Positions 29,288 to 29,576 of a DNA stretch of 64,000 nt are shown here, piece by piece. A model generated the notes under the pieces. That model was not told where the DNA came from. It did no database searches and worked only from the letters and a program-made list of their open reading frames with translations. The position numbers were made by a program, and so were the translations under genes. Where the stretch lies: the NCBI RefSeq assembly GCF_016026235.1, contig NZ_CP065613.1. One strand, written 5' to 3'. The first letter of the stretch is position 1, and every line of letters starts with the position of its first letter. This stretch comes from Escherichia coli (lineage in GTDB: Bacteria; Pseudomonadota; Gammaproteobacteria; Enterobacterales; Enterobacteriaceae).

Positions 29288-29292
29288 AGCGA

Positions 29293-29308
29293 TTCTCCAT
29301 GAGGAAAA
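29293..29308 (-). promoter_or_regulatory. Candidate FourU-type RNA thermometer hairpin sequestering the chuA Shine-Dalgarno
   Basis: mRNA (minus strand) reads UUUUCC-ucau-GGAGAA then aucgcu AUG; the U-run can pair with the SD. Confidence 0.45.
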
Positions 29309-29576
29309 TAAAAAATGCTGGCTGCCTGGGTTAATACCGGGGTGGCTGGCGAAAAATAAATTTATTTAAAATTCAGAGCGATAATATTCGCCGGGTGAGT
29401 TTACAGGCGTTTATATCCCATGAAATTGCCTGATAACTCGGCAATTACGCAAAAGCACGCCCTCTTTGTCAGGCAAAACGATATGCCCCATCAGGAGTGA
29501 AGAGAGCTGTGCGTTATCCCTTGCAAATGCTATGGTTTTGTTATCCATATGGTCGTGTTTTGTTAAATGCAAACGT

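Follow-up and report, generated by a model that had tools for sequence, protein, structure and literature searches.

Thermoregulation of the haem receptor gene has been reported for shuA of Shigella dysenteriae and chuA of uropathogenic Escherichia coli (UPEC) (Kouse et al. 2013, PLoS One 8:e63781; PMC3660397), and for chuA of enterohaemorrhagic E. coli (EHEC) (Sy and Tree 2022; PMC9002310). The thermometer was defined as nucleotides -29 to +3. A 32-nt insert confers post-transcriptional thermoregulation on gfp between 25 and 37 °C while the mRNA is unchanged; U-19C, which creates a C-G pair, lowers expression at 37 °C, and C-17A (in shuA) or U-19A (in UPEC chuA) raises it at 25 °C (PMC3660397). 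In EHEC, the U273A change results in a 2.6-fold derepression at 25 °C (PMC9002310). Here, we analyze a stretch of 64,000 nt of E. coli (assembly GCF_016026235.1, contig NZ_CP065613.1; hereafter the window), in which a FourU RNA thermometer had been predicted from the letters alone in chuA's 5' untranslated region (UTR). The feature is almost certainly the shuA/chuA FourU RNA thermometer, already published and curated, and not a new element. It is the subject of three experimental papers and has its own curated Rfam family.

The FourU element at the chuA start codon

We searched positions 29150-29950 with an E-value scan of Rfam and the whole window at the gathering thresholds. Both scans return RF02597 (shuA_thermo, the shuA/chuA 5' UTR thermoregulator) with 60.1 bits for a gathering threshold of 58. 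The match covers the full model (positions 1-32 of 32) and lies directly 5' of the chuA start codon, which it includes (Table 1). The mRNA upstream of the AUG reads ...ACCCAGGCAGCCAGCAUUUUUUAUUUUCCUCAUGGAGAAUCGCUAUG, and the sequence quoted in the original prediction (...CAGCAUUUUUUAUUUUCC UCAU GGAGAA UCGCU AUG) is present exactly. The assignment to the FourU thermometer of the shuA/chuA leader, which that prediction had made, is borne out by the full-length match together with the identity to the tested alleles described below. Its interval, 29288-29340, does correspond to the last 53 nt of the leader, whereas the element proper and its stem-loop have the other limits given in Table 1.

The Shine-Dalgarno (SD) sequence GGAGAA faces an anti-SD arm, UUUUCC, across a 4-nt loop, through the pairs C-16:G-11, C-17:G-10, U-18:A-9, U-19:G-8, U-20:A-7, and U-21:A-6. 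All six had been named correctly beforehand; folding with ViennaRNA adds A-22:U-5 as a seventh, and the stem contains two G-C pairs. In the minimum free energy (MFE) structure, the four consecutive U of the arm are paired with A-6, A-7, G-8, and A-9 of the SD, which is the FourU arrangement. This hairpin is the MFE structure of the -29..+3 element at 20, 25, 30, 37, 42, and 45 °C, with energies of -8.4, -6.1, and -5.1 kcal/mol at 25, 37, and 42 °C, respectively, and it is also the MFE structure within the full 336-nt context. When random 18-mers from the window were used as the upstream arm, only 0.6% sequestered the SD as completely, and the same was observed for 3.3% of the same-composition shuffles of the natural arm. 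The occlusion of the SD, not the total folding energy, is the distinctive feature of this element.

The published changes U-19C, U-19A, and C-17A all fall on bases of the anti-SD arm in the window, since U-19 faces G-8 and the first C of the stem is at -17. Their modelled effects go in the published directions: U-19C stabilizes the stem to -8.7 kcal/mol at 37 °C, and C-17A and U-19A raise the accessibility of the SD at 25 °C from 0.004 to 0.17-0.24. The sequence identity to the tested alleles was set via the Sakai genome, UPEC-type genomes, and the primers of Sy and Tree, of which ChuA.T310A matches the window except for the mutated base; insert or primer sequences were not found in the text of Kouse et al. 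(PMC3660397). The evidence for thermosensing is the published reporter and mutagenesis work on an identical sequence, not a thermodynamic prediction, and this strain would be expected, given that identity, to behave like those tested.

Several observations weigh against this reading. The published experiments come from other strains with the identical sequence, not from this exact strain. In the isolated element, the mean unpaired probability of the SD is 0.004 at 25 °C, 0.016 at 37 °C, and 0.03 at 42 °C, i.e. the SD is more than 97% paired up to 42 °C by nearest-neighbour thermodynamics and the switch is invisible in silico. Folding at 25 and 37 °C had been proposed as a check of the original prediction: the hairpin does form, but the stem is predicted to be closed at both temperatures and no switch is seen. 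Hence, this check neither confirms nor refutes the switch. Folding at 25, 37, and 42 °C was rejected as a test of switching, as the structure and the near-zero SD accessibility are alike at all three. The total folding energy of a 71-nt stretch does not stand out from dinucleotide shuffles (z = -0.28), which is as expected because the element must be weak; the z-score was dropped as a criterion and replaced by the SD-specific occlusion. A competing register is close in energy to the hairpin and becomes the MFE structure in the -53..+20 context. Finally, CyaR, RyhB, Esr41, Hfq, and Rho-dependent termination at +271 act on the same 60 nt (PMC9002310), and temperature is only one input in the native context.

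The last point raises the question of whether the U-rich stretch mainly serves transcription termination or pausing, or the binding of Hfq, the SD hairpin being incidental. We regard this as very improbable, and assign an equally low probability to its more specific form, in which the U-tracts mark a Rho-dependent 3' end at +271 (i.e. -21) and an Hfq platform for RyhB, Esr41, and CyaR. It has indeed been reported that Term-seq detects 3' ends at +271 and +297, that a site at +267-273 is sensitive to bicyclomycin, and that Hfq gives a CRAC (cross-linking and analysis of cDNA) peak at the ribosome-binding site (RBS) (PMC9002310); +271 falls inside the FourU run. However, bicyclomycin changes expression only about 1.4-fold (PMC9002310), and the 32-nt element under a heterologous constitutive promoter gives temperature control with unchanged mRNA levels, while single-base changes that alter only the stability of the stem shift expression as predicted (PMC3660397). 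Such functions coexist with a thermometer and do not replace it: CyaR, RyhB, Esr41, Hfq, and the Rho-dependent 3' end are additional layers, not alternatives. An intrinsic terminator was also considered and rejected, as the scan shows only weak terminator-like sites elsewhere in the leader and none at the FourU run.

One could also argue that an AT-rich leader folds into such a hairpin by chance and that it has no regulatory role. The regional folding energy, which is not below that of the shuffles, and the U-rich upstream arm, whose shuffles also trap the SD in the proportion given above, would fit this idea. It is nevertheless contradicted by the published mutagenesis and reporter data (PMC3660397) and by the match to a curated Rfam family. 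Moreover, sequestration of the SD is predicted in 70 of 70 orthologous leaders, and the last 85 nt are identical in 8 aligned leaders while the middle of the leader differs, and are conserved across E. coli genomes. A mere coincidence is therefore hardly credible.

Promoter, locus, and conservation within E. coli

The published thermometer sits at the end of a long leader. The transcription start site (TSS) of chuA in EHEC Sakai was mapped by differential RNA sequencing (dRNA-seq) to position 4,391,862, giving a 5' UTR of 291 nt (PMC9002310). This TSS lies 291 nt upstream of the Sakai ATG and transfers without insertions or deletions to position 29578 of the window. A leader of about 290 nt had been anticipated from the position of the Fur box, and the mapped TSS agrees with this estimate. 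The Fur box, for which 0.04 matches are expected by chance per window, overlaps both the -10 hexamer AATAAT and the TSS. The element is a cis-acting translational control at the 3' end of a Fur-controlled leader. In the published mechanism, which is the best supported, Fur would control the transcription of chuA and low iron would derepress it. At around 25 °C, UUUUCC would pair with GGAGAA across the UCAU loop, and the 30S subunit could not bind the closed stem, leaving the cell without haem receptor even where low iron had derepressed transcription. At 37 °C, the weak stem, made of A-U, G-U, and only two G-C pairs, would open often enough for initiation. Given Fur control and the FourU stem, ChuA would therefore be made only when low iron and host temperature occur together.

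Table 1. Features of the chuA leader and their positions in the window. Negative and positive offsets count from the A of the chuA AUG (position 29287).
Feature	Position	Strand	Basis
shuA/chuA FourU RNA thermometer element, -29..+3, 32 nt, AUUUUUUAUUUUCCUCAUGGAGAAUCGCUAUG	29285..29316	minus	Rfam RF02597
Thermometer stem-loop A-22..U-5, 7 bp, 4-nt UCAU loop	29292..29309	minus	ViennaRNA MFE, 20-45 °C
Anti-SD arm UUUUCC: four U at -21..-18 (29305-29308), CC at -17,-16 (29303-29304)	29303..29308	minus	Sequence
Shine-Dalgarno GGAGAA, -11..-6	29293..29298	minus	Sequence
chuA start codon AUG	29285..29287	minus	Open reading frame (ORF) list and RefSeq coding sequence start in aligned genomes
chuA/shuA coding sequence, 660 aa, TonB-dependent haem/haemoglobin receptor	27305..29287	minus	ORF list and RefSeq annotation of matching genomes
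chuA 5' untranslated leader, 291 nt	29288..29578	minus	Sakai dRNA-seq TSS transferred via gap-free part of alignment A1
Fur box over the chuA -10 region and start site	29577..29595		2 mismatches to the 19-bp consensus GATAATGATAATCATTATC
Promoter-like TTGATC-17-AATAAT	29587..29615	minus	Consensus scan; position fits mapped TSS
Box AGGCAGCCAGC, -40..-30	29317..29327	minus	Alignment A2, per-sequence folds
Distal U6 tract, -28..-23, putative second anti-SD	29310..29315	minus	Folds, orthologues, covariation
CyaR pairing site, -43..-24	29311..29330	minus	Best predicted duplex with CyaR nt 19-40, -18.1 kcal/mol

To study the distribution of the element in the species, we searched 5426 complete E. 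coli genomes and found chuA with its upstream region in 2236 of them, where the gene is annotated as chuA and its product as the TonB-dependent haem/haemoglobin receptor ChuA/ShuA. The query of 751 nt comprised the intergenic region and the first 138 nt of chuA. The whole query is only 80-90% identical in 1218 of the 2236 genomes, while identity over -85..+30 is 99% or more in 1648. Alignment A1 shows the window to be identical over -85..+24 to EHEC Sakai, to two further EHEC-like alleles, and to three alleles of the UPEC type. The alleles diverge in the middle of the leader, yet the last 85 nt are the same in all 8 aligned E. coli leaders, including both divergent alleles. This identity indicates that either the 3' part is under strong purifying selection or recombination has its boundary near -85. 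For the chuA leader (29288-29578), E. coli has two sharply different alleles, one EHEC/Shigella-like and the other UPEC-like.

In the window, chuS lies downstream of chuA, and chuT (shuT)-chuW-chuX-chuY-chuU are divergent. The chu locus belongs to the acid-fitness island, where it has yhiD on one side and dctR/slp on the other. E. coli FDAARGOS_943 matches the window with 99.9% identity, and many other strains do so with about 99%. The intergenic region of the window is a rarer allele: a single E. coli genome shares 99.9% identity with it, and 1005 others share 95-99%. In FDAARGOS_943, the closest genome, shuT is annotated as frameshifted and hutW/chuW as having an internal stop, whereas the window has an intact chuT (304 aa from the ATG at 29970) and an intact chuW (445 aa, 30904-32241). 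In E. coli WP4-S17-ESBL-03, an IS26 insertion stands in place of the promoter and Fur box of chuA, of ~20 nt at the start of the leader, and of the chuT side of the locus; chuA now adjoins IS26, rlmJ, and prlC. Other Rfam matches above gathering in the window, all on the plus strand, are the small RNA (sRNA) GadY (44837-44950, 150 bits), the sRNA ES205 (38987-39058, 105 bits), and the antisense RNA AgrB (20452-20535, 103 bits), which is consistent with the context of the acid-fitness island.

Orthologous leaders and a second partner of the SD

We then compared the chuA leaders outside E. coli. A scan with the ChuA protein against one genome per GTDB species gave 80 loci, in Escherichia, Kluyvera, Citrobacter, Pseudocitrobacter, Enterobacter, Lelliottia, Leclercia, Silvania, Cedecea, Buttiauxella, Pluralibacter, Yokenella, Atlantibacter, Huaxiibacter, Dryocola, Entomohabitans, Limnobaculum, Pragia, Leminorella, and others. 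These loci provided 70 distinct leaders from about 25 genera (alignment A2, MAFFT). The last ~45 nt of the leader are conserved as AGGCAGCCAGC-(G/A)CUUUUC-spacer-AUGGAGAG-UUGCU-AUG. In the box AGGCAGCCAGC, 8 of the 11 positions are invariant among the 70 leaders and the other 3 are at least 90% conserved. The box ends in AGC, three bases that are able to pair with GCU at -3..-1 (29288-29290).

RF02597 recognizes very few of these leaders. Escherichia albertii passes the threshold with 60.1 bits, Pseudocitrobacter remains below it with 41.3 bits, and the model detects none of the 11 other genera tested. Therefore, the orthologous hairpins cannot be filed under RF02597. RNAalifold on the MAFFT alignment of the 70 leaders returned neither of the two hairpins discussed here, only a 4-bp GGCA:UGCC helix with no compensatory changes. 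Because gaps from the variable spacer defeat a column-wise consensus, we used per-sequence partition functions and a block alignment of 35 distinct types. We assembled the latter ourselves out of anchored blocks, and its sequences are also those that yielded the structure.

The partition functions predict that the SD is sequestered in all 70 leaders. In 49 of them, its partner is not the tract next to the loop but a distal one, the homologous CUUUUC directly after the invariant AGC; the proximal tract is the partner in 19 leaders, from Escherichia, Buttiauxella, Dryocola, and some Kluyvera and Citrobacter. The closing pairs of the distal stem, AGC:GCU, draw the base before the AUG into the helix, and in Cedecea, Dryocola, and Buttiauxella an insertion lengthens this basal stem to AGCGC:GCGCU or GCGC:GCGC. 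In the block alignment, 84% of the cells of the distal helix are paired. Position +2 of the distal tract and the last SD base form C-G in 21 types, U-A in 5, and A-U in 1. This pair has a covariation score of 0.181; shuffles give 0.155, with 2 of 500 attaining the observed score, and sliding the partners by one column gives 0.06-0.11. In a neighbour-joining tree of ChuA, one group with U-A is Escherichia and the other, in a different clade, consists of Citrobacter JGM124, an uncultured Cedecea, and a metagenome-assembled genome from rabbit. The two groups being in separate clades, two independent double substitutions are implied.

The same region is the target of the sRNA CyaR. According to Sy and Tree, the activation of chuA by CyaR depends neither on the proximal FourU stem nor on +1..+217 nor on Rho; they left its mechanism unexplained and postulated "an additional repressive element" (PMC9002310). 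The CyaR sequence was confirmed by RF00112 at 100.7 bits and by its 100% identity in E. coli genomes, and its duplexes were scanned over sliding targets of 22 nt. An unrestricted RNAduplex of CyaR with the leader had produced meaningless long duplexes with large loops and was replaced by this procedure. Sy and Tree validated a compensatory pair, "G298C, -30 G->C" in chuA with C27G in CyaR (PMC9002310). As their T310A at "-18" is U-19A in our numbering, the two are offset by one and the mutated G is G-31. This base (29318, the middle of AGC) is inside the best predicted duplex, which thus contains the validated pair of chuA G-31 with CyaR C27.

These results suggest an extension of the thermometer, to which we give less than even chances: the SD would also pair with the distal U-tract, in a stem closed by AGC (-32..-30) and GCU (-3..-1). 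It is similarly doubtful, yet possible, that this distal hairpin is the ancestral SD trap of chuA leaders and, in E. coli, the element that CyaR relieves. By pairing with -43..-24, CyaR would remove both the distal anti-SD and the basal stem. The postulate of Sy and Tree and the position of the compensatory pair within the predicted duplex are in line with this proposal. So are the prevalence of the distal partner, the covariation score, the two double changes in the ChuA tree, and the folding of the -53..+20 context, of which the distal register is the MFE structure up to 37 °C. In the full-length wild-type E. coli context, however, the ensemble probability of the distal register is only about 2%, and the E. 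coli distal stem is weak and rich in G-U pairs. In favour of the proposal, the modelled U-19A mutation shifts the SD to the distal register (0.70-0.98 at 25 °C). With -43..-24 blocked, the opening energy of the RBS falls by 0.9-4.7 kcal/mol in this mutant and by 0.2-1.7 kcal/mol in the wild type, the same order as the published activation of 1.6-fold (U-19A) and 1.3-fold (wild type) (PMC9002310), although these energy differences vary with the context. Against the proposal, the 32-nt construct is still thermoregulated without the AGC, and mutants of the proximal arm behave as the proximal hairpin alone predicts. The U at position +2 could instead be selected for its pairing with CyaR. The pair counts come from anchored blocks in which the structure was derived from the same sequences, and RNAalifold on the plain alignment recovered neither hairpin.

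If this extension holds, the FourU stem known from the literature might represent no more than the Escherichia-specific half of a trap with two registers, the distal one persisting in E. coli as a back-up repressor that CyaR would relieve to activate chuA, a scenario that we put forward tentatively. The conserved partner of the SD across Enterobacteriaceae and Budviciaceae might then be the U-tract directly 3' of the AGGCAGCCAGC box, which we also consider rather unlikely. In such a case, Enterobacter, Citrobacter, Kluyvera, and other leaders would carry an undescribed and stronger relative of the thermometer, of about -10 to -12 kcal/mol, that is missed by RF02597. The literature searches turned up nothing relevant on the distal register, nor on thermometers of chuA leaders outside Escherichia. 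The putative role of the distal register in CyaR activation and the predicted wider spread of SD-trapping hairpins are the only parts of this analysis that we did not find there.

A natural variant bears on the question of the two registers. E. coli O16:H6 CU37RT-2 has a deletion of 48 nt (-73..-26) between TTTATTTT repeats in the chuA leader. With it, the conserved box and the CyaR site are lost, as is half of the distal U-tract, but the proximal FourU stem is kept. This strain also carries U-5C, which breaks the A-22:U-5 pair. It is a ready-made natural mutant to distinguish the registers.

Other features were observed in these leaders. The GGCA:UGCC helix returned by RNAalifold corresponds to 29323-29326 with 29283-29286 in the window (columns 40-43 and 92-95 of A2), and joins the GGCA of the conserved box to the UG of the AUG and the first two bases of the second codon (UGCC; UGUC in E. 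coli); all changes in it are one-sided. This helix may be a clamp that holds the start codon over a long range, or it may be due to chance. A C-rich block, CCAGCCACCC(C/A)GG...CCCAGGCAGCCAGC (-62..-30; 29317-29349, minus strand), is conserved from Escherichia into Budviciaceae. In the latter, its 5' half degrades and the AGGCAGCCAGC core is kept through Leminorella; the 3' half is the CyaR site. Might the 5' half be a Rho utilization (rut) site, or have a role with Hfq? Five leaders of Leclercia and Silvania (L054, L077, L085, L028, and L078) have a linker UGGCU(C/A) at about -5..+5, for which a second small hairpin, GGC-NNAU-GCC, is predicted directly 3' of the distal SD hairpin, burying the G of the AUG.

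Comparison with described systems

The sRNAs DsrA and RprA activate the translation of rpoS by an anti-antisense mechanism. If the SD of chuA does have two registers, CyaR would act in the same way, by sequestering the 5' arm of the structure that occludes the RBS. The parallel has a limit, since for chuA only the proximal FourU stem and +1..+217 have been excluded as targets of CyaR (PMC9002310). The comparative analysis gives two modest leads: the predicted sequestration of the SD in chuA leaders reaches far beyond the Escherichia/Shigella family captured by Rfam, and there is a concrete structural hypothesis for the activation of chuA by CyaR.

Another thermometer is that of shuT, which was classified as hsp17-like (Wei, Kouse and Murphy 2017; PMC5458455). 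It has its place in the chu locus too, at a distance of about 680 nt in the window and on the divergent transcript, and shares with chuA the control by Fur and a temperature control by occlusion of the SD. It differs in that a single hairpin is formed from the whole 42-nt leader, with no FourU run, and the authors place it in another class. The Fur site is inside the transcribed region of shuT, and structure probing exists for this leader (PMC5458455). In the window, the divergent shuT/chuT ATG is at 29970 (plus strand) and a second Fur box with 3 mismatches at 29928-29946 (within 29928-29972); the G32/G34 numbering of Wei et al. could not be reconciled with the sequence of the window.

The principle itself is that of the FourU thermometer of Salmonella agsA (Waldminghaus et al. 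2007, cited in PMC5458455). In both, four consecutive U pair with the SD by A-U and G-U pairs in a short hairpin directly 5' of the start codon, and melting with temperature would be zipper-like. The two have no sequence relationship, and RF02597 was the only one among the thermoregulator families to be matched in the E-value search. Contrary to agsA, a heat-shock gene, chuA serves nutrient uptake, and its element ends a long leader with multiple regulators and is flanked by a second U-tract.

The element of the window and the shuA/chuA thermoregulator of RF02597 (PMC3660397) share the 32-nt sequence, its position at -29..+3, the hairpin, the host gene, the Fur-controlled leader of 291 nt, and the mutated positions. 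This element explains why a pathogen confines the production of its haem receptor to the coincidence of low iron with 37 °C, both of them host signals, and is a textbook example of a thermometer that controls nutrient uptake. As a real and curated cis-regulatory RNA that was recognized from sequence alone, it makes a clean positive control for genome scans. Within the element itself, there is no difference between the window and the published thermometer.
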